This document shows, piece after piece, positions 448 through 34,360 of a stretch of DNA of 64,000 nt. The notes under the pieces were generated by a model. That model did not search any database, was not told the origin of the DNA, and saw only the letters and a list, made by a program, of their open reading frames with translations. The DNA comes from Staphylococcus phage Machias, in sequence record MW349128.1, one strand, 5' to 3'. Position 1 is the stretch's first letter, and every line of letters begins with the position of its first letter. Made by a program: the position numbers and the translations under genes.

Positions 448-467
448 TAAAGAGATGTGATTTTATT

Positions 468-743: not shown

Positions 744-747
744 AGGA

Positions 748-1029
748 ATGAAGTGTATGAAAGCTATTAAAAGAATAATTGGTTCAGAAGAATTTATTAA
801 CACTGTAAAGAAAACTATAGCTAGAACTAAGAAAGCAGAAGAGAAATTTTATGATTTAAATAATAGAGTTGATAAAGCTGTATCTTTAGCTAGTAAAGTT
901 GTTGAAGATAATAAAGAAAAAGAAAGAAAAATTAAAGAACTAAAAGAAGCTTTATCTAAAGAGAAAATTAATAATAGAAGTATAAAATCCAGATATAATA
1001 GATTATTATATAAAAATGAGGGAAAATAA
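748..1029 (+). CDS. small basic coiled-coil protein
   Basis: ORF with RBS aaaggaatg; K/E-rich sequence. Confidence 0.45.
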   Translation: MKCMKAIKRIIGSEEFINTVKKTIARTKKAEEKFYDLNNRVDKAVSLASKVVEDNKEKERKIKELKEALSKEKINNRSIKSRYNRLLYKNEGK

Positions 1030-1031
1030 TT

Positions 1032-1259
1032 ATGAATCCAAATATTAATTTTAATGATAATGGAAAATCTATGGATGAACTTTATTCAAAGTTACAATTT
1101 TCATTTGCTAAACAAGTAGAAAAAGATATATTGGAAGATAATGAAAAAGATTCTCTAGAAAAAGAATTAAAAGAACTTAGAGAGCTTATTTTCGAAGTAG
1201 CTAAAAAATATGACGTTAAAGAAGTAAAAGATTATTTAGTTAGAAAAAATATGAAATAA
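1032..1259 (+). CDS. small acidic protein; C-terminus EVKDYLVRKNMK (tail-family-like)
   Basis: ORF with RBS gagggaaaataattatg; C-terminal YLVRKN motif. Confidence 0.5.
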   Translation: MNPNINFNDNGKSMDELYSKLQFSFAKQVEKDILEDNEKDSLEKELKELRELIFEVAKKYDVKEVKDYLVRKNMK

Positions 1260-3628: not shown

Positions 3629-3646
3629 TAAATATATATTATTTTA
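3629..3646 (+). promoter_or_regulatory. promoter-like motif TAAATATATATTATTTTA followed by leader hairpin 3648..3679
   Basis: near-identical copies of TAAATATATATTATAAAA upstream of at least 7 other genes in this window. Confidence 0.4.
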
Positions 3647-18957: not shown

Positions 18958-19152
18958 AATAAAATGGTCGCTGCTTAAAGTGATTTAAGTTGATAAACAT
19001 TGTTAATTGCTGAAATACTATTAATAAAGTTAATCAGCATCAATTAAATATAATTGTTCAACGACTAAATGCAATGATACTATTTAATAGTATATAATAT
19101 AGTCTAATTTATATAATACTTATATAAATATAATAAATGCGAAAATTTCTTG
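18958..19152 (+). mobile_element. group I intron C (compact, no ORF)
   Basis: first 31 nt identical to intron A (ATGGTCGCTGCTTAAAGTRATTTAAGTTGAT, IGS GGTCG); cores TTAATTGCTGAAA / AATCAGCATC / GTTCAACGACTAAATGC / ATATAGTCTA; 3' end approximate. Confidence 0.65.
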
Positions 19153-19341
19153 AACGTAGCACCTGCTAAAATTAAAATATTAACTACTGTTGATACTATT
19201 CCAGAAATAATTTTAGATGATATAGTATTAAAAGATTACCCTAAAGTAGTAAGAGAGTATCCTGTTGATGAAGATATTTTCTTAGATACTGCAATCATAC
19301 ACAATTCATATGCTCAAGCACTTGGTGCAGATTTTGATGGC
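19153..19341 (+). CDS. RNAP beta-prime N-half, exon 2 (ends ...AQALGADFDG = first part of the NADFDGD catalytic motif)
   Basis: in-frame segment ending GADFDG immediately before intron D; start boundary uncertain (ORF track 19150..19365 reads through into the intron). Confidence 0.5.
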
Positions 19342-19491
19342 AAAATTTTATATTACCATCATTAAATAATATTAATTGCTGGAAAATCTAATAAGATAAT
19401 CAGCATCAACTTAATAAAAGTTGTTCAACGACTAAATATATTACTAAAGAAGATATAGTCTAATTATATGTAAATACATGTATATAAAATG
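19342..19491 (+). mobile_element. group I intron D (compact, no ORF)
   Basis: ATTAATTGCTGGAAAA / AATCAGCATCAAC / GTTCAACGACTAAATAT / GATATAGTCTAATT; omega-G at 19491. Confidence 0.65.
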
Positions 19492-19635
19492 GATATGATT
19501 TCAATACGCTCTTTATGGTCTGTAGAAGCAAATAAAGAAGCTGATAAACTTATTAATAAGAAAACTAATTACTTAAACTACACAGGAAATAGTATACGTG
19601 GAGTTGGTAATGAGAGTAAGTTTGTATGCTCTCAA
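19492..19635 (+). CDS. RNAP beta-prime N-half, exon 3 (DMISIRSLWSVEANKEADKLI...)
   Basis: aligns to E. coli [21 protein letters not shown] directly after NADFDG; the 3' end could lie anywhere 19606..19635. Confidence 0.5.
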
Positions 19636-19760
19636 TAAATTTCATTAATTGCTGGAAAAACAAAATTAATCAGCATCAACTTAATAAAAGTTGTTCAACG
19701 ACTAAATATGAAAATGATTTAAATATCATAAGATATAGTCTAATTATCATAAATATATGG
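19636..19760 (+). mobile_element. group I intron E (compact, no ORF)
   Basis: ATTAATTGCTGGAAAAA / AATCAGCATCAAC / GTTCAACGACTAAATATG / GATATAGTCTAATT, nearly identical to intron D; boundaries approximate. Confidence 0.6.
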
Positions 19761-19781
19761 TACAAGCTTTATATTCTTTAA
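19761..19781 (+). CDS. RNAP beta-prime N-half, tiny terminal exon (YKLYIL-stop ~ E. coli LGLYYMT), ends the N-terminal beta-prime polypeptide
   Basis: in-frame continuation after the omega-G at 19760; stop at 19779..19781; the beta-prime C-half is encoded separately at 39794. Confidence 0.3.
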   Translation, partial: YKLYIL

Positions 19782-19802
19782 CTAAAGAATAATTTAAAAA
19801 TT

Positions 19803-19837
19803 CAGAGTAACGGTCTAATATAGATCGTTACTCTTAT
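19803..19837. terminator. terminator hairpin (AGAGTAACG / loop / CGTTACTCT)
   Basis: 9-bp inverted repeat after the beta-prime N-half gene, followed by T-rich sequence. Confidence 0.55.
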
Positions 19838-19865: not shown

Positions 19866-19883
19866 TAAATATATATTATAAAA
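19866..19883 (+). promoter_or_regulatory. promoter-like motif TAAATATATATTATAAAA upstream of the paralogue array
   Basis: exact consensus copy 30 nt upstream of the RBS of gene 19913. Confidence 0.45.
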
Positions 19884-19912: not shown

Positions 19913-20545
19913 GTGATTATTTTGAATATTAATGATTATAGATATTTTAAAATGGATGATGGATTAATGCAAATCCATAAAGATAAAATTAAAGGAAATA
20001 TTACAGACTTGATAGGAATGTTGCATATTGATGTAGATCGTATCAAGGAAGATAATTTTCTAAATTTAGGTTTAGAAAGATTAAATATAAATATTTCTTT
20101 TGATAATCTTGAATTGGTATGGGAAAATATAAAATTTCAATTTAGTTTGTCGATAATTATTTTTGCTGAAAAACAAGAAAATGAATTAAATGAATATACA
20201 AGTAGTATAAGATTTTTTTATGATAATGAAGAAAGACAAATGGAGAGTGATAGATTTAAAAAACTTATATTAAATGTTGATTATATAAAAAATTTTGTAA
20301 GTTTAATGGTAGATGATAAAGAAATCGATGATTTAACAATTTCTATTTTTAATTATGATAAAAATGATTTTCATTTAAAATGTTCTGATATTGTAATTAG
20401 ATACTTATACGATTTAGAAAGAAGATTTAATGATAAAGGTTATGATTTGTTATTAAATGGTAAGAATATAAATGAATTAGAAGACAATGAAGAAAAAGAT
20501 ATTGATAAGATTAAGAAATATTTAGTGAAAGAAAATTTTAAATAA
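19913..20545 (+). CDS. tail-family paralogue 1 (C-terminus ...DIDKIKKYLVKENFK)
   Basis: RBS aaaggagaag; GTG/TTG start region; conserved C-terminal tail. Confidence 0.6.
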   Translation: MIILNINDYRYFKMDDGLMQIHKDKIKGNITDLIGMLHIDVDRIKEDNFLNLGLERLNINISFDNLELVWENIKFQFSLSIIIFAEKQENELNEYTSSIRFFYDNEERQMESDRFKKLILNVDYIKNFVSLMVDDKEIDDLTISIFNYDKNDFHLKCSDIVIRYLYDLERRFNDKGYDLLLNGKNINELEDNEEKDIDKIKKYLVKENFK

Positions 20546-20556
20546 GGAATGATAAA

Positions 20557-21219
20557 ATGGATAATATAAAAGTATACAATAATACAATAACTAATCAAAA
20601 ATTTTCTTTAGATAATAATGAAATTGATAATGGTAGATTCTTATATAAAGCTATGGAACAAGTAACAAATAAAAATCAAAAGAATATTGAATTTCTTGAT
20701 AGTAGTTTTCTAGTAAATAATATGCAGATGAATTTCCATTTTTATATTTACTCGGATTTTATTATAAACTTTAAAAATCTAACTGGAAAAGATAAAAATA
20801 TATTAATTAATGGTAATAATTCTGATATAACAAGGGCTTCATTTGTCTGTTTTTATGACAATATTGATAATGAAAGAATATTCCAAATTTATCTAAAAAC
20901 AAAGAAATCTAAAAAGATAAGAAATATATTAAAAGATTATGAAAGTGAGAAATATTTAATTGAAAGAATAATGTTAATTGGTGAAGATATATCTTTTAAA
21001 GTAGATTTTAAAAAAGAATATTTAGATAGTATAGAAGATAATGAATATAAGTCTTTAGACAGTTTGATTCACTATATATTAAAAGATATGTTAATTAATA
21101 TAGATGGAGAATTTATACCTTTTATGGAATTTATTAAAAATTATCTTTATTCTATATCTAAAGAAATTACTGATGAAAAAGAAATTAAGAAATATTTAAT
21201 TAAAGAAAATTTTAAATAA
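20557..21219 (+). CDS. tail-family paralogue 2 (...ITDEKEIKKYLIKENFK)
   Basis: RBS taaggaatg; conserved tail. Confidence 0.65.
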   Translation: MDNIKVYNNTITNQKFSLDNNEIDNGRFLYKAMEQVTNKNQKNIEFLDSSFLVNNMQMNFHFYIYSDFIINFKNLTGKDKNILINGNNSDITRASFVCFYDNIDNERIFQIYLKTKKSKKIRNILKDYESEKYLIERIMLIGEDISFKVDFKKEYLDSIEDNEYKSLDSLIHYILKDMLINIDGEFIPFMEFIKNYLYSISKEITDEKEIKKYLIKENFK

Positions 21220-21236
21220 TGGAGTTGAAATAGATA

Positions 21237-21722
21237 ATGATATATTACAAAAATAAAGTAAATGGTGAAATATATGAAGTTAATAATATTCATAGAAAAG
21301 ATGATGCTTTTTATTATGTGTTTGGTAATGAATTTAAAAAAGAGAATTCGTCTTTTTATAGATCTGATGGTAAAAAGATTGACCTATATGATGAAGATGT
21401 AGGAAGTATAAAATTGGAGTTTTTCTTAATTTACGGTTTTATTAATCTTCATTTAACTACGCACATTTCTTGGGATCTTAATAGTATTCCTTTTATACCT
21501 AAAAATATAGATTTAACAAACCAAAATCTTGTCATATCAGACTCTTCAATTGATCTTTATTATTTATTTTATAAAAGATTATGTTATGCGATAGATGTAA
21601 ATATGACACATTATAATATTCCATTAGAAAAATTTAATTTTGATAATGAAGATATATTTGAAATAATTTCAGAAGATTGCAAAGAAGTAAAAGATTTTAA
21701 AGTTAGAAATCATTTTAAATAA
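21237..21722 (+). CDS. tail-family paralogue 3, divergent tail (...KEVKDFKVRNHFK)
   Basis: RBS tggagttg; divergent but recognisable tail. Confidence 0.55.
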   Translation: MIYYKNKVNGEIYEVNNIHRKDDAFYYVFGNEFKKENSSFYRSDGKKIDLYDEDVGSIKLEFFLIYGFINLHLTTHISWDLNSIPFIPKNIDLTNQNLVISDSSIDLYYLFYKRLCYAIDVNMTHYNIPLEKFNFDNEDIFEIISEDCKEVKDFKVRNHFK

Positions 21723-21735
21723 GGAGGAATTATTA

Positions 21736-22407
21736 ATGGAAGGTTATGATTTTGATTTATATATAACAAATAGGGATTTGAAAGATAATCATTTTATGAA
21801 AATAAATAAAGATAGGTATAATAATGATAGAGACTATATTGAAAGAGTAAATACTATCAATATGATAAAATTATTAACTCATGTCTCTTATCCTGATTAT
21901 GAAAATATTATATCATTTAATGTTGACTGTAAACTGAAATTAAGAGGTTTTAATGATTATAAAGATATTAAGTTATCTTATTATCAAGAAGTAGAATCAA
22001 AATCAACTATTATTGCCGGAATATCATTTGTAAAAACTGAATTAAATTTAATAAGTAAAGAGAAAGATAATAGATATCTAACAGATGAATTATTGTATGA
22101 GTATGATATGATGAAAATAAATACAAGTATAAATAATAAACTTAATACAATTAAATTAACTAAAAATGAAGCCACTGCTTTGAATAGTATTAGTCAGAGA
22201 AGTCCTAAATTTCATTTATCACTTGATAAGTTTAGAAGAGAATTCTTAAAGATGATAACTGAATTAAATAAGTATGAAGATATACAGTTTTTAATTGATG
22301 GAACGTATTATAGTTTAGAAGATATCAATTTATACAATAAAGATTTATTTAGAACTGCTACTGATAAGGAATTCAAGAATTATTTAGTTAAAGAAGGATT
22401 TAGATAA
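21736..22407 (+). CDS. tail-family paralogue 4 (...ATDKEFKNYLVKEGFR)
   Basis: RBS taaggagg; conserved tail. Confidence 0.65.
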   Translation: MEGYDFDLYITNRDLKDNHFMKINKDRYNNDRDYIERVNTINMIKLLTHVSYPDYENIISFNVDCKLKLRGFNDYKDIKLSYYQEVESKSTIIAGISFVKTELNLISKEKDNRYLTDELLYEYDMMKINTSINNKLNTIKLTKNEATALNSISQRSPKFHLSLDKFRREFLKMITELNKYEDIQFLIDGTYYSLEDINLYNKDLFRTATDKEFKNYLVKEGFR

Positions 22408-22417
22408 AAAAGTGTAT

Positions 22418-22436
22418 TAAATATATATTATAAAAA
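22418..22436 (+). promoter_or_regulatory. promoter-like motif TAAATATATATTATAAAAA inside the paralogue array
   Basis: consensus copy abutting ORF 22444 with no SD (real start probably 22504, which has RBS gaggag). Confidence 0.4.
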
Positions 22437-22503
22437 TGAGATAATGAATCTAACAGAGTTCATTATCTCTAATAATATCTTAAATAGAGGAGATGAAGTT
22501 AAT

Positions 22504-23145
22504 ATGGATAATAATGAATATATAAATAATCATGAATTCTATAAAGTTGATAGTAGAGGACAAATAATAGTAACTAATAAAGATGTTACTAAAGATGAAT
22601 TAAATGTTAATCTATTCAAAGAATTATTTAATTTTAATAATGTTAAGAAAAAAATAGATGAAATTGGTTTATTTTCATTAAAAACCAATAGTATTTTGAT
22701 AAGGGACAAAAATACTTATTACAGAACTAAGAATTCTTATATAGATATAACAGACATGTGCAATAATAATTATTTTGAATTATATTTTGTATTTTCATTA
22801 TTAGATAAAAATGAAAATGGATGCAAGAATATAGGACCTTTTAAAAGTTCAATTAGCAGTCAAGTATTTTCATATACAGCTAAAATTCAAATTAAAAATA
22901 GAGACAATTTGGAACATGAATTAATTTCAAATATAATTGATCTCTTTAGTAGTAAAAAAGAAACAAATTTAATAATATATACAGTTGATTCAGTAGAGGA
23001 TGATATTGATTTTATGACAAGTCGAGAATTTAAGAAAGATTTAATTTTAGAAGAATATACACTCGATGAAATATACAAGGTCTTAGAAAAATTAGAAAGT
23101 GAAAAAGAAATTAAACAATACTTAGTTAAAGAAAATTTTAAATAG
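22504..23145 (+). CDS. tail-family paralogue 5 (...ESEKEIKQYLVKENFK); the ORF track starts it at 22444
   Basis: internal ATG with RBS agaggagatg; conserved tail. Confidence 0.6.
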   Translation: MDNNEYINNHEFYKVDSRGQIIVTNKDVTKDELNVNLFKELFNFNNVKKKIDEIGLFSLKTNSILIRDKNTYYRTKNSYIDITDMCNNNYFELYFVFSLLDKNENGCKNIGPFKSSISSQVFSYTAKIQIKNRDNLEHELISNIIDLFSSKKETNLIIYTVDSVEDDIDFMTSREFKKDLILEEYTLDEIYKVLEKLESEKEIKQYLVKENFK

Positions 23146-23160
23146 AGAGGAGTGAAATAT

Positions 23161-23697
23161 ATGGATTTAAAAAATTCTAGATTTTTAAGAAAAAGTAAAC
23201 ATCATAAAATAATACAATTTAAGCATAATAATATAAATAATGATCATGTATTAGGATTATCTTTATTAATATTATTTACTAATGTTTATATAAGAAGTGA
23301 TTCTGATGATATTAGTATTTATGATTATTTATCAAATGTATACATGAAAATAGATGGTTATTTAAAAGGTCCTTTATCAATAACGCATGGAGACAATAAT
23401 AGCGTATTAGTATATTCTAGAATTAGATTACCATTAGATCTATTTAAATTAAGAGAATACAATGTTAATACTAGATTATACACATATATTCTTCTTGATA
23501 ATTATGAAACTGATAAAGGAGATTTAATTCAATCCGTTGTTAATGCTTCTGATTATATTATTAAGAATGATAGAATTAAATTAAAAATAATTATTGATGG
23601 AATTGAAAAAGATATTGGTGGTATATTAAAATACTTTGATGAAGTTAAAGATGAAAAAGAAATTAAGAAATATTTAGTAGAAAAAAATTTTAAATAA
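23161..23697 (+). CDS. tail-family paralogue 6 (...VKDEKEIKKYLVEKNFK); the ORF track starts it at 23152 (GTG)
   Basis: RBS agagaggag; conserved tail. Confidence 0.6.
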   Translation: MDLKNSRFLRKSKHHKIIQFKHNNINNDHVLGLSLLILFTNVYIRSDSDDISIYDYLSNVYMKIDGYLKGPLSITHGDNNSVLVYSRIRLPLDLFKLREYNVNTRLYTYILLDNYETDKGDLIQSVVNASDYIIKNDRIKLKIIIDGIEKDIGGILKYFDEVKDEKEIKKYLVEKNFK

Positions 23698-23714
23698 TGA
23701 AAGAGGTAATTAAA

Positions 23715-24332
23715 ATGAATGAATCATTATATGTATCTGATATTTTAGAATATAGTTTCATTGATAAAAAGAGTCTTTCTAGAAAAGAATTATTTGATAT
23801 ATCTTTTGATCAATTTTTCAAACATCCAGGCTGTACTGGTTATGATGTTAAAAATGTTCGTCTTTGGATAAATTCTATGGATGGTCTAATTCTAAGATTC
23901 GGTTATGATATGAATAATCTTTTTTATGTAAATGAATTTGATCTTTTCGTAGATAAAAATGATGGTCAATATGAATTTAGTTTTGTATTAGATATTCCAG
24001 CGTTTTCAAAAAAAGAAGTTCACTGTGAAATAGGACCTTTTGTATCTAGAGAAGGTGAAATTGAATTTTATTTTAATGATACAGAAATATATACTGAAGG
24101 AAAAACTTTACTAGACAAAGCTAAAGAATACTTGACTAGAGATATATTTAATAAAAATGGTTCTGCATTTAATGTCTTTTCATTAAATAACGAAGACAAT
24201 ATTCATGATTACAAAATAAGTAAAGAGGATATAAAAGAAATCTATAATTTAAATATTATAGATGAACTATTTAAAGAAGTAACGGATGAAAAGGAAATTA
24301 AAAATTACTTAGTCAAGAAAGGTTTTGAATAA
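23715..24332 (+). CDS. tail-family paralogue 7 (...VTDEKEIKNYLVKKGFE); the ORF track starts it at 23697
   Basis: RBS aagaggtaat before ATG 23715; conserved tail. Confidence 0.6.
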   Translation: MNESLYVSDILEYSFIDKKSLSRKELFDISFDQFFKHPGCTGYDVKNVRLWINSMDGLILRFGYDMNNLFYVNEFDLFVDKNDGQYEFSFVLDIPAFSKKEVHCEIGPFVSREGEIEFYFNDTEIYTEGKTLLDKAKEYLTRDIFNKNGSAFNVFSLNNEDNIHDYKISKEDIKEIYNLNIIDELFKEVTDEKEIKNYLVKKGFE

Positions 24333-24333
24333 T

Positions 24334-25011
24334 ATGATTGATTTTAAATTATACAAAAATATAGATAATGGAAAATATATAGAAGCAAAAGATGGTATAG
24401 AAAAATATATTAGATCTTTTTCATTTATTAACTATGTGGATGATAATCTATACTTAGTGAAGCATGAAAAATATACAAAAGACGACTATATATTGAGACA
24501 TCAAGGAATGACTAGAAATTTCATTGTAATTAATCACAATAACATTATGTATAGAATAAAACACATAGAATTGACTATTCGGTTGAAGCTTAATCATGAA
24601 GCTATAATTAATATTAAACTTACACCTACAGCTGCAACTCTTAATAAATTTGAAAGTGTTGGAAATTTCACAAAAGTAAGAAACTTATTTTATAACCGGA
24701 AATTATTTAAATATGAAAATTATCCTAAATTTGAATATGATTATAAAGAAGAAGATCAGATTTTCTTTAGTGAAATGTTTGAAGCGGTATTAAAAGAAAT
24801 TGAAAATGATGATATTGATTTTTATGTAATTAATGAAGAAATTATAGAAGAATTTGAAGAAAATAAGAATAAAATAAAACTAGAAAATTTCTCGAAGTAT
24901 AAAGATGGTACATTAGAAGATTATAATATATTAAATTTCAGTAAGAAATTTATTGAAATTAAAGATGAGAAAGAAATTAAAAACTATTTAGTAAATAAAA
25001 ACTTTAGGTAA
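24334..25011 (+). CDS. tail-family paralogue 8 (...IKDEKEIKNYLVNKNFR); the ORF track starts it at 24325 (TTG)
   Basis: ATG 24334 with RBS aaaggtttt; conserved tail. Confidence 0.6.
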   Translation: MIDFKLYKNIDNGKYIEAKDGIEKYIRSFSFINYVDDNLYLVKHEKYTKDDYILRHQGMTRNFIVINHNNIMYRIKHIELTIRLKLNHEAIINIKLTPTAATLNKFESVGNFTKVRNLFYNRKLFKYENYPKFEYDYKEEDQIFFSEMFEAVLKEIENDDIDFYVINEEIIEEFEENKNKIKLENFSKYKDGTLEDYNILNFSKKFIEIKDEKEIKNYLVNKNFR

Positions 25012-25057
25012 TTTAATTAACTTACTTTTATAATATATGAAAGAAGTGATTAACTAA

Positions 25058-25843
25058 ATGTCTAATGAAAATAACGGAATTGATTTAATTTCACAAATTA
25101 ATGATATGATGGAAGAATATAAAATGCTAGTTGGATTTAAATCTAAAATGGAACGTAAAGAAATTCAATTAGAAGAAAGAATTAGAGATTTAACTAAGAA
25201 TCTGAAATATCCTAAACATACATTTGTATCTAATATGGAAGCTAATATTATTAGTGTAGAAAAAGAAATTAAAGACACTATTATGCAAATGAAAAATGTT
25301 AAAAAAGATATTATTGACTTAACTATGAAAGCTCAGAAAATGGCTGAAGATGATGAATCTGAAGATAACTATAAAGTGCTTGCTAAAAATGTACTTAGTC
25401 AGCTTAATAATATGTCTAATAAAGATATATTAAACAGCATGACAGAAAATGAAGAAGATACTGCTGAAGATGAAGAAGATTTGAAAGATAAATTAGATCA
25501 AACTTTAGAAAATCTAAATAAAGATATAGATGAAGATGAAAAAGAAATTGAAAAAAGAGAGGAATTACAAAAAGAAGTTAATGAACTTAAACATCAAGAC
25601 TTAGCTTCTATTTTAAAAGTATATAAAGGCACATTGCAATTCTTTGTATTAGGTGATACTCCAAATGAATATGAACTAGTAATTGCTGATAATGAAATGA
25701 ATATCATTGAAGAAGATGAGCTTGAAGATGAATATCCAGAATTATTTACTATGACTAGAGATCTTATCTTTGAAGATGTTGAAGGTAATGATGAAATAGT
25801 TAAAGATGAATTTGGAAATATTTATCAAAAAGCAGAATTTTAG
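25058..25843 (+). CDS. acidic coiled-coil protein, not a tail-family member, embedded in the array
   Basis: ORF with RBS gaaagaagtg; E/D/K-rich heptads. Confidence 0.5.
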   Translation: MSNENNGIDLISQINDMMEEYKMLVGFKSKMERKEIQLEERIRDLTKNLKYPKHTFVSNMEANIISVEKEIKDTIMQMKNVKKDIIDLTMKAQKMAEDDESEDNYKVLAKNVLSQLNNMSNKDILNSMTENEEDTAEDEEDLKDKLDQTLENLNKDIDEDEKEIEKREELQKEVNELKHQDLASILKVYKGTLQFFVLGDTPNEYELVIADNEMNIIEEDELEDEYPELFTMTRDLIFEDVEGNDEIVKDEFGNIYQKAEF

Positions 25844-25851
25844 ATTATTTT

Positions 25852-25882
25852 GCCCATAATATATCGCATTAATATATTATGG
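25852..25882. terminator. hairpin CCCATAATATAT / CGCATTA / ATATATTATGGG
   Basis: 12-bp perfect inverted repeat after the stop at 25843. Confidence 0.6.
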
Positions 25883-25911
25883 GTATTTATTATATAGGAG
25901 ATGAATTAAAT

Positions 25912-26037
25912 ATGTTAAAAAGATTATATGAATTATTAACTAGAAAAAGATTTGAAAAGAAACTATATGAATTTAAATTTAGTTATCAAGACCATGAGCA
26001 TCTTAATGAAGTTCATGAATTTAGTAAAAACAATTAA
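25912..26037 (+). CDS. small ORF (41 aa) not in the ORF track
   Basis: ATG with RBS taggagatg; basic peptide MLKRLYELLTRKRFEKKLYEF... Confidence 0.3.
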   Translation: MLKRLYELLTRKRFEKKLYEFKFSYQDHEHLNEVHEFSKNN

Positions 26038-26040
26038 GGA

Positions 26041-26451
26041 GTGATATTATTGCTATCAGAATACAGATTAAATAGTAATAAAGAAAATATTAAACAACTA
26101 TTAAGAGATTATGGTTTTAGAAAAGATTCTTATACTAAAGCGTTATTATATAGAAAGCGTGTGACTGATCCAAATGATATTTTGTTCATAGAAGCTGAAG
26201 TGGTTATTGAAACTAATTCAGATCTAGTTAAATTAAATTATTATGATAATAAACATAATAGATTTAATCCTTCTAATGAATCGCCAGAGGTTCAAAAAGG
26301 TTTAAGTATATTAGAAGACATGAAAGAAAAAGAATTATTAATTGAACCAGAATTAACTCAAAATAAAGAAGAAAAAGAAGTTCTTGATAGACTTAAAGAA
26401 CAACGTGAAGAAATGGAAAATGGACAAGTATCACCTAATTCTGAAGATTAG
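26041..26451 (+). CDS. hypothetical protein (136 aa), not a tail-family member
   Basis: ORF with RBS ttaaggagtg; TTG start. Confidence 0.5.
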   Translation: MILLLSEYRLNSNKENIKQLLRDYGFRKDSYTKALLYRKRVTDPNDILFIEAEVVIETNSDLVKLNYYDNKHNRFNPSNESPEVQKGLSILEDMKEKELLIEPELTQNKEEKEVLDRLKEQREEMENGQVSPNSED

Positions 26452-26453
26452 AA

Positions 26454-26472
26454 TAAATATATATTATAAAAA
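26454..26472 (+). promoter_or_regulatory. promoter-like motif TAAATATATATTATAAAAA
   Basis: consensus copy immediately upstream of hairpin 26477..26506 and gene 26532. Confidence 0.45.
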
Positions 26473-26476
26473 CGTT

Positions 26477-26506
26477 ATCCCAATACTATTAAATTAGTAT
26501 TGGGAT
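26477..26506. terminator. conserved-family hairpin (ATCCCAATACT / ATTAAATT / AGTATTGGGAT)
   Basis: member of the CCCAATAC stem family; sits between the promoter motif and an RBS, so it may be a 5'-leader structure as well as a terminator. Confidence 0.65.
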
Positions 26507-26531
26507 TATTATAATAAAAGGAGTTAAATAA

Positions 26532-27311
26532 ATGGAGAAAATTAACAAATACTATGCTAGTAAATCTGAAAAAGAATTTATGGAATTAACTTTCAATGAA
26601 AATGAAACAAACTATTTTGACTTTAAATGGAAAGTTTTAAGCAAATTATTCGCTGAAATGCAGTTAAAGTATAATGAAAGATTTTTCATAACTCATGAAG
26701 AATATGATGATAATGATGGCTTATTTGGTGTTAGATTATTTTTTGATGCTTTCCCTACAGTAAAATATAAATATAAGGGTAAAAAAAATAAAATGGAACT
26801 TCTCTTTTACGCTACAATACGTTTTAGTTTAAAAGAAGAAGACGATAACTATATTAAGATTAGAGCTTTCCCTGTATATAATAATAGTAAGATAGGTAAA
26901 AGATTATTTAGTAAAAGATCTGGTATATTTGATGATGATGGTGAACTATATTTACATCATAGCTTTAATGAAGAAATTATATCTCGATTTTTAAAATATT
27001 ATAAAAGTCATATACAAAAAGGAAAAAGAGCTGTAGAACTCAAAGATGATTTATATAAAATATTTAATGATACAAATAAATTAATCTTTGAATTACTGGA
27101 TCAGATACAAGACCATTCAGATATTGAATTTCTTATTGCACCGGATTGGGATTTTAGCGTTAAGGAAAAGGTAAAAGAAAAAGGTTTTAGTTTTGAAAAA
27201 GAATATGATAAGTATATCAGTTTAAATGATTTTGACGCTGATGCATATTTTAGAGAAATAACTGATGAGAAAGAGATTAAAAAATTTAAAGTCAAGAAAG
27301 GATTTTCCTAA
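26532..27311 (+). CDS. tail-family paralogue 9 (...ITDEKEIKKFKVKKGFS)
   Basis: RBS aaaaggagtt; conserved tail; N-terminal helix LSKLFAEMQLKYNER shared with paralogues 11 and 12. Confidence 0.65.
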   Translation: MEKINKYYASKSEKEFMELTFNENETNYFDFKWKVLSKLFAEMQLKYNERFFITHEEYDDNDGLFGVRLFFDAFPTVKYKYKGKKNKMELLFYATIRFSLKEEDDNYIKIRAFPVYNNSKIGKRLFSKRSGIFDDDGELYLHHSFNEEIISRFLKYYKSHIQKGKRAVELKDDLYKIFNDTNKLIFELLDQIQDHSDIEFLIAPDWDFSVKEKVKEKGFSFEKEYDKYISLNDFDADAYFREITDEKEIKKFKVKKGFS

Positions 27312-27312
27312 T

Positions 27313-28122
27313 ATGAAAAATAATACAAAATATTTTATAGATAAAGAAAGAGACGAATTAATTGAAATTGATAGAAATTATCTTAACCGATATGAATATA
27401 TTGCATATGTATTAACCACTATGGATATTAATAATATTTTAAGTAGTAAAGGATACGCTAAATCTTTCATAGATAATATTTCTAAAGAAGAAGATTATAT
27501 GAATTTTCATTATAAAGAAATTGATAATGATATTTATTTTATAGACAAACATAATAAAAATGATGCTTTTAAAAGATTTAATACTAATTTTCATATTAAT
27601 TTCAATACTGGTAGAATGGATAAAATTGAAACTGGAGAATTTAAATTAGATTTTCATTTTGATAATTCATTATATAAAGAATATTTCAATACAATTACTA
27701 ATGGTTTAGTAAATGAAAATAATTTAGTTAATGAAGGAATAAATGAAAAAATGAGATCTCTTGTAAATATTGAATTATTTGAAAAGAGTTTATACGAGAT
27801 CAAATATAATAATGAATCATTTATGGATTTAAGTTTTTCAATATCGGCATTTGAGAAAAATCCTATTATTAAATTTATAGAAGATTTTAAGGATTTATTC
27901 TTTATAATATTATATCAGAATAATCTTAGTGTATTAATGTCTCTTTATGAGATTAAATATATGTATAAAGATGATATAGAATTTTATATTAGTTTCTCCA
28001 GTAAGGGTGGCGGTTTAATTAATTTATTACATCTAATAGAAAGTGATGAAAATGATTTATTCAAAGAATTAACAGATGAAAAAGATATTAAAAATTTTAA
28101 AGTCAAGAAAGGATTTTCATAA
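27313..28122 (+). CDS. tail-family paralogue 10 (...LTDEKDIKNFKVKKGFS); the ORF track starts it at 27265
   Basis: ATG 27313 with RBS aaaggatttt; conserved tail. Confidence 0.6.
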   Translation: MKNNTKYFIDKERDELIEIDRNYLNRYEYIAYVLTTMDINNILSSKGYAKSFIDNISKEEDYMNFHYKEIDNDIYFIDKHNKNDAFKRFNTNFHINFNTGRMDKIETGEFKLDFHFDNSLYKEYFNTITNGLVNENNLVNEGINEKMRSLVNIELFEKSLYEIKYNNESFMDLSFSISAFEKNPIIKFIEDFKDLFFIILYQNNLSVLMSLYEIKYMYKDDIEFYISFSSKGGGLINLLHLIESDENDLFKELTDEKDIKNFKVKKGFS

Positions 28123-28859
28123 TGGAATATAATAATTATTATAGATATAAATTAGATGGAAAAATACTTCACTTTAATATGGATAGAACTGACTTGCGTA
28201 GAGATATATTGGCTGAAATATTTACTAAAATGCAGATGGAATATATTTATAAAAATGAAGAAATGATCATCAGACCAAGAAACTTTAGACATCGATCTGT
28301 ACTTTCTTTAGTTTATTCTCTTTTTAATGATAAAGTAGTTAAAATCGAACAAATTTCTAAAATATTAATTAAAGATCATGCAAGAGATTTATTAAAATAT
28401 AATACGAATTTTAATTTAGAATTTAATTCTATTTTAGATAAAGGAATATTTAAAAAAGATTTTCCAAAGGAATCTTTTCATGACAAAACAGAAAGTAATA
28501 TGAATGGATACTCAATTTTAAGTGATAATATAAGACATACTAGTGAAAATTTTGTTAATCTAGAAGATAGAGATCGTATTTTAAATTTTGGAGAAATAGA
28601 ATTTCTAGTCAAAGAATTTAATAGAGCTCTTTTAAATTATCTTATGGATTTAGTGGAATATGGAGATTTAGAATTAAATGTTAAGAAATCAGAGTTAGCA
28701 TATTTTATGACCGGAATATATACAAAAATGGAAGAACAAGAAGACAAATTATTTTCTATATTCGATTATAAATTTTTACTTAATGAATCTGGGTTATTTG
28801 AAGAGGTTACAGATGAAAAAGTTATTAAAGAATATTTAGTGAAAAATAATTTTAAATAA
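28122..28859 (+). CDS. tail-family paralogue 11 (...VTDEKVIKEYLVKNNFK)
   Basis: TAATG overlap with the upstream gene; conserved tail. Confidence 0.65.
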   Translation: MEYNNYYRYKLDGKILHFNMDRTDLRRDILAEIFTKMQMEYIYKNEEMIIRPRNFRHRSVLSLVYSLFNDKVVKIEQISKILIKDHARDLLKYNTNFNLEFNSILDKGIFKKDFPKESFHDKTESNMNGYSILSDNIRHTSENFVNLEDRDRILNFGEIEFLVKEFNRALLNYLMDLVEYGDLELNVKKSELAYFMTGIYTKMEEQEDKLFSIFDYKFLLNESGLFEEVTDEKVIKEYLVKNNFK

Positions 28860-28873
28860 AGGAGGATTTTTCG

Positions 28874-29734
28874 TTGAATAAAAATAAAGATTATTATCTA
28901 TATAAATTAGAAGACAAAATGTACACAGTTGAAAATGAAATTGAAGATTTATCGGATATAGGTATAAAGAATTTTATAACTCCAGAAATTAATACTTTAA
29001 GTCATATATTCTCAAATTTACAATTCTCACATAAAGAAAATAGAAACCCTGATAAATCTCCTTTTATGCTTTTTAATATTTTTAAAGAGGAACCAAGACA
29101 TATTAAAGGAGCTATTATAGATATAATGCCATTTCTACCTTTTTTAGCTTATAATATAAACGATTCAAAAATATTAAATAATTTTAGTATAAATTTAAAT
29201 TCAGATGTCAAATTTCATGAAAAAGGTGAATATAAAGATAAAGACGATAATGATATTTATGTACTTAAAAATGGCATTGATCTTAGTTTAGAATTGAGTA
29301 TTTCAAATCTTGGAACTGAATTAGACAAAAAATTATTTAATGAATCATGTGGAAATGTCTTTGAGTTTAAAGGAGAAAATAATACATTAGTATTTAAAAT
29401 AAATAAATTTATACCTGAAGAAGATCCAATTCAACTATATAATGCTTTAAAGAAAAATAATCTAGGTCATCATAGGATGTATAAATTTCTTCTAAATATA
29501 AATAATGAAATACTAACATTATTGAATAAAATAACCAATCATCTTAATATAAATTTTTATTTAAATGAAAGATATTTTTTAGAATTTAGCAAAGATGATT
29601 TAAAAATAAAAGAAGAAGATATTAAAGATAAATATGTAGAATTATTTAGTTATATAGATGAAACAGATACATTTGAGAAAATTAATGATGAAAAGATTAT
29701 AGCTAAATATAAAGTAAGAGATAATTTTAAATAA
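28874..29734 (+). CDS. tail-family paralogue 12 (...INDEKIIAKYKVRDNFK)
   Basis: RBS aaggagg, TTG start; conserved tail. Confidence 0.6.
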   Translation: MNKNKDYYLYKLEDKMYTVENEIEDLSDIGIKNFITPEINTLSHIFSNLQFSHKENRNPDKSPFMLFNIFKEEPRHIKGAIIDIMPFLPFLAYNINDSKILNNFSINLNSDVKFHEKGEYKDKDDNDIYVLKNGIDLSLELSISNLGTELDKKLFNESCGNVFEFKGENNTLVFKINKFIPEEDPIQLYNALKKNNLGHHRMYKFLLNINNEILTLLNKITNHLNINFYLNERYFLEFSKDDLKIKEEDIKDKYVELFSYIDETDTFEKINDEKIIAKYKVRDNFK

Positions 29735-29794: not shown

Positions 29795-32530
29795 ATGAAA
29801 ATTAAACGATTAAAGTTAGTTAACTTTATAGGTATATATGCTGGGACAGGTCTTAAAGAAATTGAGATAGACTTCAGTAAGAGTAAAAATAATATGATAA
29901 TGCTACTTGGAAATAACGGATCTAGTAAGACTGTGATACTTTCACAACTAAGTCCGTATAGAACTTCTAATGATAATCGTAAGACAATTACGATTGAAGG
30001 AGAAAAAGGAGTTAAAGAAATCGATTATATTAAAGGTAATGATGTATATAAAATTAAACATCATTATGGTAAAAATAGTTCTCAGAATAAATCATTTATT
30101 AAAAAGAATGATGAAGAATTAAATGAAAATGGTGGCATTAAACTGTTTAATGAAATAGTTGATAATGAATTAGACGTATCACAAGAATATTTCACAGTAG
30201 GTAGATTAGGAGATAATGTATCTAACTTTATAGACTATACTACAGGTGATCGTAAAACATATATTAACAAATTTGTACCTAATATTGATAAGTATTTAGA
30301 AGCTTATAAAGTTGCTAATGAAAAGAAAAAGCTTATTGATAAAGATCTTAAGTCATTAAGATTTGATTTAGATAAATATAAAGAATTTGATGAAATTAAG
30401 AAAGAAAAAGAAGTACTAGAAAATTTAATTAATGAAATTCAAGATGAATTAGATAATGCTAATAAAGAAAAGACTTCTAATGAGACCAAATTAAATTCTA
30501 TTATGGAAGAAAAGTATAATGAAATTCATCCAACTCAATTAAAAGAAAATTTAATTAATGAACTTCATGAACTTGAAAATGAATTAGAAAAAGAAAGAAA
30601 GTTAAAAGAATCTAATGAAAATCTAAATAATTATACATTAGAATCTGCTAATGAAAAGAAAGAAAAAGTATCTTCTATACTTAATGAAGTTCATACAAAT
30701 TTAACATCAACTAAAAAGGATAAAGAATCTAATCAAGATAAATTAGATGATTTAATTAGTAGAAAATCTAAAATTGAATCTAGAATGAATGCTATTAAGT
30801 TCAATGAAGATTATGATGCTTCACAGGAAATTGATGAAATTCTTCAATCATATAAAGATGATCTAACTGATTTAGATAATGATATAGATGTTGCTAGAGG
30901 ATCCTATTTCAATAACTTTAATATTAAAATTAAAGATAATATTGAAGTTAATACACTTAATTTATATATAGATAACCTATTAAATAAAGTTAATAAATTC
31001 AAGAGTCTAGTTAATGATAATAAATTTAAATATAATGATATTCATGGAGATTTTGAAACTGAAATTAAATCTAATAAAGAAAAAATTTCTATGAACCTAA
31101 ATGAAGCTAATGAACTTAATACAAGTCTTAATCAAATTAAAGGTAAATCAGATTTACTTAAAATATTAGAACAAAAAGATCATGAACATTATAAAGAATG
31201 TGTATTTGTACCTTTAGTAGTTGATTTTAAAGATAATGAATATGATTCAATTGATAAATTGGAAACTAGAGTTAATGAACTTTATGAAGAAAATAATCAG
31301 TTAGAAAATGATAATGAACTTCTTTCTAATCATATCGATATATTAAATCAATTTAATTATATTAAAGAAGATGTCGATTCATTAAACGAATATTTAGGTT
31401 TTGATATTATTACTATGGATAATATTAAAGAGATATTTATTAATAATAGCTCATTTACTAATGAAGAAAATAGCTTGAAATCATTATCAGATAATGTTAA
31501 TGAAATTAGAACATCTGAACGCAATAGAGATGAATTATCTAAAGAATTGGAAAGAAAAAGATATGCGTTTAAAGAAGATCATTCTAATCAAAAATTAATG
31601 AATCAATATAACGAAGATAAAGCTGAATTAGAAAAGCAGATTGAAGAAGTTAAAAGTAATAAAGATAATATCTTAGAGAATCTTAATGAACTTAATGCAA
31701 AGAAAGATAAAGGACAAAATACTTTAGACATTATTAATGAATTTATTAATTTAACAGAAAAGTCTGATGAAATTAAATCTAACATTAAAGATAAACAATC
31801 TAATATTGATGAAGTTGATAAAGATTTAAATAATTTAAGTAGATTATATGAACTTAATCAACAATCAGATAGTAAGATTAATTCTATTAAAGATAATTTA
31901 ACTATGAAGAAAAATGATTTAGAATCTACTAAAGAAAAATACTTTACAGTAAATACGATTATTAATAAGATTGATGATATTGAGAAAGTATTATGGAAAT
32001 ATTCATTAGTAGTCGATTCATTGAATCCTAAAAAAGATTCTATACCATTAATATTCATTACTAATTACCTTAAAGATATTGCAGTAAGTACTAATGAACT
32101 TCTTTCAGTGGCGTACAATAATTCATTCAAGATTGATTTTGATTTAACTGACAAGGATTTCTTTATTAATGTTTATAAAGGTAATGGTACTGAATTACAA
32201 GACATTAAAGAAGCTTCTCAAGGGGAAACAGCTTTAACTAATATTAGTTTATCATTATCATTATTAAATAAAGTTTCACAAGATTATAATATTCTTTATC
32301 TAGATGAAATGGATGCAACATTAGACTCTAATAATCGTAGAAGATTTGTTGATGTTATTGATAAGCAAATTGAATTAATGGGATTAGAACAAGTATTCTT
32401 AATTAGTCATAATGATGAATTTTATAGTTCTGATATTGATTTAATTTTGCTTAAAGGATATGAAAATAAGATTGATATTAATGATGAAGAAATGATGCAA
32501 GGTAAAAATGTATTGTTTAAATTAAATTAA
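29795..32530 (+). CDS. SbcC/Rad50-like SMC-family ATPase (T4 gp46-like)
   Basis: N-terminal Walker A LLGNNGSSKT; long coiled-coil; C-terminal signature ASQGETAL and Walker B/D-loop NILYLDEMDATLD. Confidence 0.7.
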   Translation: MKIKRLKLVNFIGIYAGTGLKEIEIDFSKSKNNMIMLLGNNGSSKTVILSQLSPYRTSNDNRKTITIEGEKGVKEIDYIKGNDVYKIKHHYGKNSSQNKSFIKKNDEELNENGGIKLFNEIVDNELDVSQEYFTVGRLGDNVSNFIDYTTGDRKTYINKFVPNIDKYLEAYKVANEKKKLIDKDLKSLRFDLDKYKEFDEIKKEKEVLENLINEIQDELDNANKEKTSNETKLNSIMEEKYNEIHPTQLKENLINELHELENELEKERKLKESNENLNNYTLESANEKKEKVSSILNEVHTNLTSTKKDKESNQDKLDDLISRKSKIESRMNAIKFNEDYDASQEIDEILQSYKDDLTDLDNDIDVARGSYFNNFNIKIKDNIEVNTLNLYIDNLLNKVNKFKSLVNDNKFKYNDIHGDFETEIKSNKEKISMNLNEANELNTSLNQIKGKSDLLKILEQKDHEHYKECVFVPLVVDFKDNEYDSIDKLETRVNELYEENNQLENDNELLSNHIDILNQFNYIKEDVDSLNEYLGFDIITMDNIKEIFINNSSFTNEENSLKSLSDNVNEIRTSERNRDELSKELERKRYAFKEDHSNQKLMNQYNEDKAELEKQIEEVKSNKDNILENLNELNAKKDKGQNTLDIINEFINLTEKSDEIKSNIKDKQSNIDEVDKDLNNLSRLYELNQQSDSKINSIKDNLTMKKNDLESTKEKYFTVNTIINKIDDIEKVLWKYSLVVDSLNPKKDSIPLIFITNYLKDIAVSTNELLSVAYNNSFKIDFDLTDKDFFINVYKGNGTELQDIKEASQGETALTNISLSLSLLNKVSQDYNILYLDEMDATLDSNNRRRFVDVIDKQIELMGLEQVFLISHNDEFYSSDIDLILLKGYENKIDINDEEMMQGKNVLFKLN

Positions 32531-32695: not shown

Positions 32696-32707
32696 TTAAT
32701 CAAACAT

Positions 32708-32745
32708 GCCAAACGATTCTAATCGAGTCGTTTGGCATTATATTT
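32708..32745. terminator. rho-independent terminator (ATGCCAAACGAT / loop / GTCGTTTGGCAT + T-run)
   Basis: 12-bp GC-containing stem followed by TTATATTTTT. Confidence 0.75.
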
Positions 32746-32813: not shown

Positions 32814-33282
32814 ATGGGTCGTTTTATAAAATCAACATATTTGAATAAAAAAGAAACATCTAATAAAAAAGAGAAAGTAGTAATGGTTGTTAAGGAAGAA
32901 GATGGAACTAAGAAACATATGGAAATAGTAGATCCTATGATGCATTATTATGTAACTAAAGATGAACATTGGTTACCACCTAATATAGTTGTAGGTTCTA
33001 TGGCTAAAGAAAAAGTTAGAACTGTACACTGTAAACATAAAGATGTTATTAAATCTATAGTTAGAGAAGCAGGTAATGCTCAAGATAAATCAGAATACGA
33101 TAGAATATTATCTTCAGGTAATTATGAAGAGTTTAGAAAATTAAAAGATTTTCATTTAATGAATAATGTTCATGGATCTGATATTAATATTGAAGATTAT
33201 AATATTAATGAGTATATCAAACAAAACTTAGATAGTAAAGTTGGAATTGATATATGTCTATTTGATATAGAGGTAGATGGAT
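32814..33282 (+). CDS. DNA polymerase family B, N-terminal subunit, exon 1 (Exo I motif FDIEVDG)
   Basis: RBS aggagg; ICLFDIEVDG ~ T4 gp43 ANCDIEVTGD; the exon end is approximate, chosen so the product reads DIEVDG-F-PEPGMAE against T4 DIEVTGDKFPDPMKAE. Confidence 0.7.
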
Positions 33283-34070
33283 CGCAAACAGTTGGGTTAA
33301 TTTAGGTAGCTCAATTAAAAAATTATTAATTGCTGAAAAGTTTAAAAATAATCAGCATCACTAATTTAGTGTTCAACGACTAAATATAATAATATAATTC
33401 AAATATACTTCCTTTATAAAAGGAGGAAAATAATGAAAGAAATATGGAAAGACATTAAAGATTTTGAAAATTACTATAAAATATCCAATACTGGTAAAGT
33501 TAAATCGGTTTCAAGATATGTATATAATGATTCTTTAAAAGGTAAAGATAAAAGAATGCTTATTAAAGAAAGAGTATTAAAAACAAGAATAAATAAAAAT
33601 GGTTATGAAGATGTTCAATTATATAGAAATAATAAGAAGCATACAAGAAGAATACACCGTTTAGTTGCAGAGAATTTTATCGAAAATAAAGATATTGATA
33701 AAAATGTAGTTAATCATATTGACGGTAATAAATTAAATAACAATTTATCTAATTTAGAATGGATGTCAGTATTAGAAAATAATTTACATGCTATAGAAAA
33801 TAATCTTCATAAAACTGATAAAATGGAAGAATCATTAAAAAAGAGAAGAAAACCAGTAGCACAAATAGATAAAGAAACAGATAAAATTATAAAAGAATAT
33901 GAAAGTGCTAAATTTGCAGCGGAAGAATTAAATATAGATAGAAAAGGAATACAAGCAGTTGCAAATGGTTATAGAAATAGTAAAACTTACAAAAATTTTA
34001 AATGGAAATATATTTGAATTTAAAAGATATAGTCTAATCTTTATACAATTGTATAAAGTTAATATAAATG
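33283..34070 (+). mobile_element. group I intron F with an HNH homing endonuclease ORF inserted between P7 and P7'
   Basis: ATTAATTGCTGAAAAG / AATCAGCATC / GTTCAACGACTAAATAT before the ORF and GATATAGTCTAATC (34026..34036) after it. Confidence 0.65.
33433..34017 (+). CDS. intron-encoded HNH homing endonuclease (NUMOD4-like N-terminus, HNH_3 core, C-terminal NUMOD1/IENR1-like HTH)
   Basis: MKEIWKDIKDFENYYKISNTGKVKS; VNHIDGNKLNNNLSNLEW; RBS aaaggagg. Confidence 0.8.
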   Translation: MKEIWKDIKDFENYYKISNTGKVKSVSRYVYNDSLKGKDKRMLIKERVLKTRINKNGYEDVQLYRNNKKHTRRIHRLVAENFIENKDIDKNVVNHIDGNKLNNNLSNLEWMSVLENNLHAIENNLHKTDKMEESLKKRRKPVAQIDKETDKIIKEYESAKFAAEELNIDRKGIQAVANGYRNSKTYKNFKWKYI

Positions 34071-34360
34071 TCCCTGAACCAGGAATGGCTGAAATTAATA
34101 TTATAACTGTAGTTGATTGGAGTAAACGTAAATGTTTAACATTTGCATTAAAATATGATACAGATAATTATAATGAAGTTATGACAGATAAAACTAAATT
34201 AATGGAAGATCTAAATAATATTTATAATAATAAAGATAGCGAGATTGGAGAAGATTTAGGTTTAGAATTTGAAATATATGAATTAGATACTGAAATGGAA
34301 ATTATTAAATCATTCTTATACTATATTAATGAAATTAGTAAGCCTGATATATGTACGGCT
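34071..34360 (+). CDS. DNA polymerase family B, N-terminal subunit, exon 2 (ends ...KPDICTA before Exo II)
   Basis: PEPGMAEINIITVVDWSKRKCLTFAL ~ T4 PDPMKAEYEIDAITHYDSIDDRFYVFDL; the exon end ACGGCT pairs with intron IGS GGTCGT. Confidence 0.7.

Follow-up and report, generated by a model that had tools for sequence, protein, structure and literature searches.

Within a 64,000-nucleotide (nt) stretch of the genome of Staphylococcus phage Machias (record MW349128.1; hereafter the window), we found a tandem array of 12 genes whose products differ almost throughout yet all end in the same short peptide. These open reading frames (ORFs), numbered m01 to m12 in their order along the + strand, lie between positions 19913 and 29734, and each closes with the shared C-terminal peptide (the tail), followed directly by a stop codon. 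The array is a clade-restricted early accessory family, expanded and fast-diverging, of the uracil-DNA jumbo phages of Staphylococcus. We tentatively favour a reading in which the variable bodies are rapidly evolving early binders of host components, acting in host takeover or against host defences, and the tail is a docking helix common to all of them.

The array covers about 10 kb, roughly 4% of the genome, and no known Staphylococcus jumbo phage lacks it; members of this group are efficient transducers and candidate therapeutic agents against methicillin-resistant Staphylococcus aureus. They are related to the Bacillus phages AR9 and PBS1 (Korn et al., bioRxiv 10.1101/2020.12.14.422802) and are counted among the uracil-DNA phages (PMC10303552). 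All members of the array are annotated as 'hypothetical protein', and the family goes unmentioned in Korn et al., in the description of phage DC4 (PMC10638138) and in a comparative review of jumbo phages (PMC7824862).

Twelve paralogues share a C-terminal peptide

The tail has the consensus F-x-E-φ-[TK]-D-E-K-E-I-K-x-[YF]-[LK]-V-[KR]-x-[NG]-F-[KR] immediately before the stop codon. A strict form of this pattern, searched in all six frames of the 64 kb, matched these 12 genes alone. A hidden Markov model (HMM) of the tail, built from 96 members of the family, scored the 12 genes at 18.6-33.3 bits and 341 of the 342 other ORFs at 6.4 bits or less, the exception being ORF 1032-1259, to which we return below. 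The ORF ends, the pattern scan and the HMM thus agree with a preliminary description of the window, made from the sequence alone, which had proposed 12 paralogues with a common tail. That description gave the tail about 16 residues; the tail itself stands, but its conserved stretch is longer, about 20-22 residues, reaching back to F(-20) and E(-18) as numbered from the C-terminus. In a MAFFT alignment of the 12 members, the Phe at -2 formed the single invariant column apart from the initiator Met. The subfamily-weighted logo reads F(-20)-x-E-φ-[TKE]-D-E-K-E-I-K-[KN]-[YF]-[LK]-[VI]-[KR]-[KE]-[NG]-F-[KR], with conservation of 100% at F(-2), 94% at K(-10) and 76% at D(-15), and tails are about 55-70% identical across subfamilies.

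The conservation lies in the peptide. Identity within tail codons was 0.70 at position 1, 0.76 at position 2 and 0.57 at position 3, and pooled over paralogue tails the proportion of synonymous differences (pS) was 0.585, near saturation for an AT-rich genome (GC content of the window, 20-27%), compared with 0.276 for non-synonymous differences (pN). We looked for conserved DNA 3' of the stop codon across members and found none. Because the third codon position is the least conserved, pN is lower than pS and the DNA beyond the stop is not conserved, selection acts on the peptide rather than on a DNA site, as had been proposed; the same codon pattern marks the tail as old and held by selection on the peptide, not as a product of recent gene conversion.

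The tail matches no described motif that we could find, in keeping with the first impression of it. Neither the tail alone nor the full-length proteins gave a significant match in Pfam, PHROGs, NCBIfam, PADLOC or PDB sequences, and the best tail-only matches (eL38, E 0.47; RecX_HTH1, E 0.03) were far below the cut-offs. The C-terminal peptide of FtsZ (D-I-P-x-F-L-R) was considered as a relative and set aside, the resemblance being too weak and its key proline absent from the tail. As a predicted helix, the tail has T/D at the N-cap, N/G followed by Phe at the C-cap, and E(-14) and K(-10) paired at i, i+4. A helical wheel would place I(-11), Y(-8) and L(-7) on one face and K(-13), K(-10), V(-6) and F(-2) on the other.

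Bodies are divergent and probably α/β

In an all-against-all BLASTP comparison of the members, mostly just the last 18-35 residues aligned; longer, weak matches joined m09 with m10, m09 with m12, m10 with m11 and m05 with m07. The 96 members, drawn from eight phages including Machias, fell into 10 BLAST subfamilies, and hhalign comparisons between these with the last 24 residues removed returned nothing for 43 of 45 pairs (64% and 31% probability for the other two). The bodies are therefore mostly unalignable, as previously described, and the proposed architecture of variable bodies joined to a constant terminal peptide holds in BLASTP, hhalign and the codon analysis. An N-terminal helix reported as common to paralogues 9, 11 and 12 was visible in alignments. 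An N-terminal β-hairpin shared more widely was suspected from N-to-N best hhalign matches; we do not claim it, as an HMM trained with one subfamily left out at a time failed to support it. Eleven of the 12 bodies are acidic (net charge -3 to -14), and the spacers between genes inside the two blocks of the array, m01-m08 (block A) and m09-m12 (block B), are 0-17 nt.

An AlphaFold2 model of m11, from a 14-sequence alignment, reached a predicted local distance difference test (pLDDT) of 70.8 and a predicted template-modelling score (pTM) of 0.76. It is ordered as an N-terminal hairpin, a helix at residues 26-42 ('LAEIFTKMQMEY', the very helix pointed out in the preliminary description), an antiparallel sheet, a long helix and the tail, which forms a strand (226-228) and a helix (232-243) at a pLDDT of about 88. 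The model suggests an α/β body with no convincing known fold. The model of m07 (pLDDT 43) was too poor for use. Searched against BFVD with Foldseek, the m11 model matched family members alone, including a 206-residue member from block A at E 1e-5, a hint of one fold common to blocks A and B.

The array is preceded by early promoters

Three early-promoter motifs had been noticed, at 19866, 22418 and 26454; exact copies of the 17-mer AAATATATATTATAAAA start at 19867, 22419 and 26455, and the window holds exactly five such copies, all on the + strand. The three at the array (P1-P3; Table 1) have the form AAATATATATTAT-N6-G on the coding strand, identical to the AR9 early consensus including the +1 G. 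In AR9 this consensus, AAATATATATTAT-(6N)-G, was derived from differential RNA sequencing and primer extension; the virion RNA polymerase, once injected, transcribes from such promoters with no need for newly made protein, and the genes for virion proteins are late (PMC5312081). The same motif has been predicted upstream of 29 MarsHill genes by Korn et al. Host promoters of σ70 type were not enriched in the region (125 found, 138 expected).

P1 would serve m01-m04, P2 would serve m05-m08 and an acidic gene that follows them, and P3 would serve m09-m12 and the downstream ATPase gene, which is probably co-transcribed with block B as far as a terminator-like hairpin. A palindromic hairpin directly after the P3 start site may give the block-B mRNA a 5' stem-loop or terminate the unit upstream. 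An early promoter coupled to a stem-loop is reminiscent of the 'PeSL' cassettes of phage T4, which are implicated in modular gene shuffling. Further exact AAATATATATTAT cores at 3630, 9604, 15284 and 45522, all on the + strand, mark other early transcription units in the window.

The family is restricted to Staphylococcus jumbo phages and turns over rapidly

A megablast search with the region matched nine Staphylococcus jumbo phages only (PB50, PALS_2, SA1, LY01, AH12, S6, DC4, MarsHill and Madawaska). In seven of seven related phages compared, the array occupies one and the same slot, flanked by the N-terminal β' gene of the virion RNA polymerase and a gene for an SbcC-like ATPase, and has 7 to 15 members per phage (array region UFVDC4_00025-00042 in DC4 and ORF180-192 in SA1); a metagenomic contig has the same layout. 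Searching 50,697 phage records for the tail with tblastn gave only the nine Staphylococcus jumbo phages, and an exhaustive HMMER scan of 1.84 billion representative proteins gave 18 clusters, every one from the array family; word-indexed homologue searches likewise returned Staphylococcus jumbo-phage proteins only. No relative was found in IMG/VR or in 185,579 GTDB species genomes, where pattern matches were unconfirmed by tblastn, and hhalign found no relationship between the family profile and the genes in the same slot of Listeria phage LPJP1 and AR9.

Orthologous bodies had ratios of non-synonymous to synonymous substitution rates (dN/dS) of 0.21-0.79, with a pooled pN/pS of 0.49 (tails, 0.33), compared with dN/dS of 0.10-0.35 for flanking core genes. 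As the body values lie below 1 and yet above those of the core genes, the array genes appear to retain function under weaker constraint than the core, or in part to diversify. The gene content of the array also changes between close relatives. Between Machias and MarsHill, dS was 0.10-0.24 for several array genes and 0.69 for the adjacent ATPase gene (29795-32530); array values so far below that of the neighbour suggest recent horizontal exchange of array genes between phage lineages. The preliminary description had held open a recent, functionless duplication; the presence of the array in all ten sequenced relatives, the near-saturated tail pS and the body dN/dS below 1 speak against it.

The terminal peptide recurs on a second gene cluster

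ORF 1032-1259 (75 residues, ending ..KEVKDYLVRKNMK), the best non-family match to the tail HMM (17.1 bits, E 7e-5), belongs to a cluster of small genes that the preliminary description had passed over. The cluster is cut by the left end of the window, and its genes encode coiled-coil-like proteins of 63-93 residues. Three of its four ORFs carry the terminal heptapeptide: 169-447 (..IIKENFK), 468-743 (..FIRDNLK) and 1032-1259 (..YLVRKNMK). A relaxed hexapeptide pattern was terminal in 15 of 67 genes and internal 14 times in 19,472 residues; among the 55 non-family genes, three terminal matches were seen where about 0.04 would be expected by chance. The full cluster in MarsHill consists of seven small helical genes (gp091-098, L012 5241-7481) downstream of a RecD-like helicase gene, mostly ending φ-[KR]-x-N-[FLM]-[KR], with no canonical early promoter found upstream of it in that phage. 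As short coiled-coil-like proteins cannot share an α/β body, this recurrence suggests that the terminal peptide acts as a portable module.

A constrained mid-array gene encodes a candidate partner

Between the two blocks lies a single-copy gene for a 133-residue protein. A tblastn search located it in the nine Staphylococcus jumbo phages that carry the array and in no others. The copies are 83-99% identical, with a dN/dS of 0.13, and the gene is far better conserved than the neighbouring array genes; its product had no match in Pfam or PHROG. Being single-copy, strongly constrained and distributed exactly as the array is, it looks like a hub for many tails, and on this guilt by association we propose its product as a candidate common partner; a host hub is an equally possible alternative. 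A tail-like stretch (KENIKQLLRDYGFRK) near the N-terminus of the 133-residue protein was dropped as evidence after the ungapped tail HMM missed it. The SbcC-like ATPase encoded directly downstream of the array, confirmed as such by its PHROG 77 match (E 1e-63), has no specific pointer to it as a partner: its gene is also kept in AR9, PBS1, LPJP1 and phiR1-37, all of which lack the array family.

How the tail may function

In the reading that we favour, the virion RNA polymerase, injected with the DNA, would transcribe the three cassettes, on the evidence of their promoters perhaps within minutes. The products would be mostly acidic α/β proteins of 160-290 residues, each variable body binding or neutralizing its own host component, or its own allele of a component, among the targets of takeover or anti-defence. 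The constant C-terminal module, a short strand followed by a capped 11-residue helix ending N/G-F-K/R-COOH, would dock on one shared partner, and the same heptapeptide on the unrelated coiled-coil cluster would mean that the tag is portable. The 133-residue protein would be the most economical candidate for that partner, with a host hub equally possible. From the sequence and its conservation we thus infer a host-interaction role, a docking function and a possible partner.

Several observations weigh against this reading. No member was tied by homology to a host target or a defence system in PADLOC, Pfam or PHROGs. Early expression in the Staphylococcus phage is predicted solely from promoters, the RNA-seq report on SA1 (PMC9414953) naming none of the array genes, and the 133-residue partner is proposed solely from co-distribution. 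For an N-terminal motif across the family, the leave-one-subfamily-out HMM failed to separate members from decoys in nine of the ten subfamilies. Finally, the tail has high local confidence within a compact m11 model, so that it may be a purely structural end-piece, and Foldseek ties this model to a block-A member.

The last two observations lead to the main rival explanation, that the tail is the structurally required last strand and helix of one ancestral fold and that the genes are ordinary diverged paralogues, their surfaces drifting or diversifying, with no shared partner. We consider this somewhat unlikely. It accounts for the compactness of the m11 model, the well-predicted tail and its classic helix-capping features, for the weak longer-range similarities among several subfamilies, to which the Foldseek match adds, and for the similar order of helices and strands in the low-confidence m07 model. 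It sits poorly with the extreme contrast between tails that are so alike and bodies that give no profile-profile signal, with the charged, non-core nature of several of the most conserved tail residues (K-10, K-13 and D-15), and with the presence of the same heptapeptide on small coiled-coil proteins unable to share the α/β fold.

A C-terminal degron or adaptor function, which the preliminary description had listed beside docking, is like docking compatible with the evidence, but it is unlikely. The tail would then deliver the early proteins, or whatever targets they have bound, to a protease of the host or the phage, either to time early functions or to destroy host factors. C-terminal recognition tags of the ClpXP type and the docking of the SspB C-terminal tail on ClpX are precedents, and the strictly terminal position, the free carboxylate after F-[KR] with its invariant F and the predicted early expression, which fits later clearance, would all suit this role. 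Against it, the tail is unlike the known tags for ClpX, ClpC or Lon, the array has no linked protease gene, and the conserved segment, at about 20 residues, is long and is predicted to be helical and packed rather than floppy.

A virion-packaging or ejection signal, through which the proteins would enter the capsid and be delivered into the host as weapons against its defences, had been suggested on the model of T4 internal proteins; it is in our view quite improbable. Variable cargo with a constant tag fits its logic, jumbo phages are known to package many proteins, the downstream ATPase is labelled 'virion associated protein' in MarsHill, Madawaska and PB50, and the cargo-loading peptides of encapsulins are C-terminal, as the tail is. 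On the other side, all three promoters are of the early type, at odds with the late expression of virion protein genes in AR9 (PMC5312081); the shallow list of 15 proteins identified by liquid chromatography-mass spectrometry in DC4 virions contains none of UFVDC4_00025-00042; and the capsid-targeting sequence of T4 is N-terminal and cleaved, whereas the array tag is C-terminal.

A role for the tail as an amphipathic helix that targets the proteins to the host membrane and keeps them at its inner surface is highly improbable. In being basic, and in its I, Y, L, V and F residues, the terminal helix has a broad likeness to the C-terminal membrane-targeting sequences of FtsA and MinD; its hydrophobic moment is 0.29-0.30 with a negative mean hydrophobicity (0.57 for E. 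coli FtsA and 0.45 for MinD), its hydrophobic residues lie on two opposite faces where helices of the FtsA/MinD type combine a high moment with a single hydrophobic face, and its conservation is much tighter than is typical of such helices. Conservation of the tail DNA itself, as a recombination or gene-conversion cassette or a translational-coupling element, is barely credible: the genes are tightly coupled and recombination does occur (variable gene content, array dS below flank dS), but the codon analysis largely refutes it, with position 3 least conserved, paralogue tail pS near saturation and no conservation after the stop, and the ribosome-binding sites lie outside the tail.

A stronger form of the docking reading may be considered, as a possibility rather than a probability, in which a helix ending [LI]-[VI]-[KR]-x-N-[FLM]-[KR]-COOH is a portable tag that recruits at least 15 early proteins from two arrays to one hub, either the co-distributed 133-residue protein or a host machine. 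If true, this tag-and-hub system of host takeover, comparable to the poxvirus ANK-PRANC/cullin arrangement or to the cargo tags of encapsulins, would be without a described counterpart in bacteriophages. Should the tail prove to be a docking tag, one peptide would open a full set of early host-interaction proteins to experiment; if it is merely structural, the array still displays extreme divergence of bodies around a fixed terminal element. Uracil-DNA phages of this kind have no recognisable inhibitor of uracil-DNA glycosylase (Ung) (PMC10303552), and one array paralogue might be that missing inhibitor. The array is a reasonable place to seek it, as well as new anti-defence proteins active in Staphylococcus.

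Comparison with known systems

Close counterparts are the early cassettes of AR9/PBS1-like phages, with which the array shares the promoter, the slot between virion RNA polymerase β' and SbcC-like ATPase genes, and a homologue of AR9 g142 as its embedded acidic gene; in AR9, PBS1 and LPJP1 the slot holds unrelated small genes and no tail-bearing family. The hypervariable early regions of T4 and the gp37-60 region of SPO1 are also clusters of small early genes of unknown function with strong early promoters and rapid gene turnover, presumed to act in host shut-off or against defences; we know of none in which one family of paralogues with a shared terminal peptide makes up the cluster. Among the closest known systems are also small α/β binders (the type III secretion chaperone/YbjN-like fold, AcrIF24, phiKZ Dip and actin-capping protein). 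Lineage-specific early arrays are known in large viruses; an array and a small-gene cluster joined only by a C-terminal helix appear to be new.

Other likenesses concern the logic of a constant tag. The internal proteins of T4 (IPI-III and Alt) combine variable cargo with a short constant targeting peptide and have a proposed anti-defence role, but their signal of about 10 residues is N-terminal and cleaved by the prohead protease and their genes are expressed for packaging, whereas the array has its tag at the extreme C-terminus and early promoters. The cargo-loading peptide of encapsulins matches in its terminal position. The ankyrin-repeat/PRANC (F-box-like) proteins of poxviruses form tandem, lineage-specific arrays in which the target-binding part varies and a C-terminal module, constant throughout, docks on one hub; the array would resemble them in its tandem paralogues, in copy number that varies among close relatives and in the proposed hub docking, an analogy only, as there is no relationship of sequence or fold and the host here is bacterial. 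In polymorphic toxin cassettes the N-terminal trafficking region is constant, the toxin domain at the C-terminus varies and the gene for the cognate immunity protein follows immediately; we rejected this comparison, since the polarity of the array is reversed, no toxin domain was found with Pfam or PADLOC and two gene types do not alternate.

Genes within and around the array

Table 1 Coordinates of the array genes, the second cluster and regulatory and neighbouring features in the window
Feature	Position	Strand	Length (residues)	Tail	Remarks
Small-gene cluster	169-1259	+			Helical ORFs 169-447, 468-743, 748-1029, 1032-1259
β' gene intervening sequences	about 18979-19149, 19366-19490, 19641-19755				Within 18979-19790
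Terminator-like hairpin	19804-19834	+			14 pairs, then T-rich tail; closes upstream virion RNA polymerase β' unit
Early promoter P1	19867-19886	+			AAATATATATTAT, AAAATA, G(+1); syntenic copy in PB50
m01	19913-20545	+	210	..DKIKKYLVKENFK	Probable start TTG at 19922; identical (100%) to CPT_Machias_120
m02	20557-21219	+	220	..ITDEKEIKKYLIKENFK	
m03	21237-21722	+	161	..EDCKEVKDFKVRNHFK	Divergent tail
m04	21736-22407	+	223	..ATDKEFKNYLVKEGFR	
Early promoter P2	22419-22438	+			AAATATATATTAT, AAAAAT, G(+1); syntenic in PB50, DC4, PALS_2, LY01, Madawaska
m05	22444-23145	+	233 as listed	..ESEKEIKQYLVKENFK	Likely start 22504 (213 residues), because orthologues start at the internal Met
m06	23152-23697	+	181	..VKDEKEIKKYLVEKNFK	Sole member with a basic body
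m07	23697-24332	+	211	..VTDEKEIKNYLVKKGFE	
m08	24325-25011	+	228	..IKDEKEIKNYLVNKNFR	
Acidic coiled-coil-like gene	25058-25843	+	261		Clade-wide core gene, outside the family
Terminator-like hairpin	25851-25885	+			3' of the acidic gene
133-residue gene	26050-26451	+	133		Mid-array, single-copy; acidic C-terminal half
Early promoter P3	26455-26474	+			AAATATATATTAT, AAAAAC, G(+1); syntenic in all seven related phages examined
Palindromic hairpin	26477-26506				12-bp stem, directly downstream of P3 start site
m09	26532-27311	+	259	..ITDEKEIKKFKVKKGFS	
m10	27313-28122	+	269 from likely start	..LTDEKDIKNFKVKKGFS	Listed ORF reaches 27265; P0020, 269 residues
m11	28122-28859	+	245	..VTDEKVIKEYLVKNNFK	Modelled member
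m12	28874-29734	+	286	..INDEKIIAKYKVRDNFK	
SbcC/SMC-like ATPase	29795-32530	+			AR9-like phage core gene; PHROG 77, E 1e-63
Terminator-like hairpin	32706-32738				End of the ATPase-gene unit

Three ORFs, rather than the two genes first described, interrupt the array (25058-25843, 25879-26037 and 26050-26451). The first, the acidic gene, matches AR9 g142 (BLASTP E 3e-5), has a C-terminus similar to one in LPJP1 and a dN/dS of 0.18-0.35; its AR9 homologue marks it as part of the clade core, with the array having grown up around it. The second, of 52 residues, looks like a truncated remnant of a gene for 113-136 residues (ending ..DFYLILDxSF) that is intact at this position in PB50, PALS_2, SA1 and LY01.

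On either side of the array, genes are interrupted by other sequences. Upstream, the N-terminal β' gene of the virion RNA polymerase is split by three mutually similar intervening sequences of about 125-170 nt, leaving a last exon of apparently just 10 codons (VQALYSLTKE); the gene is uninterrupted in SA1. Their scores with the Rfam model for group I introns, 34, 28 and 22 bits, stay below its gathering score of 50, and they would be unusually small for group I introns. Downstream, within 32814-34363, an HNH/NUMOD homing endonuclease gene (33433-34017; Pfam NUMOD4, E 4e-15, and HNH_3) separates fragments annotated as a DNA polymerase exonuclease domain in PB50, another insertion of a mobile element in a replication gene.

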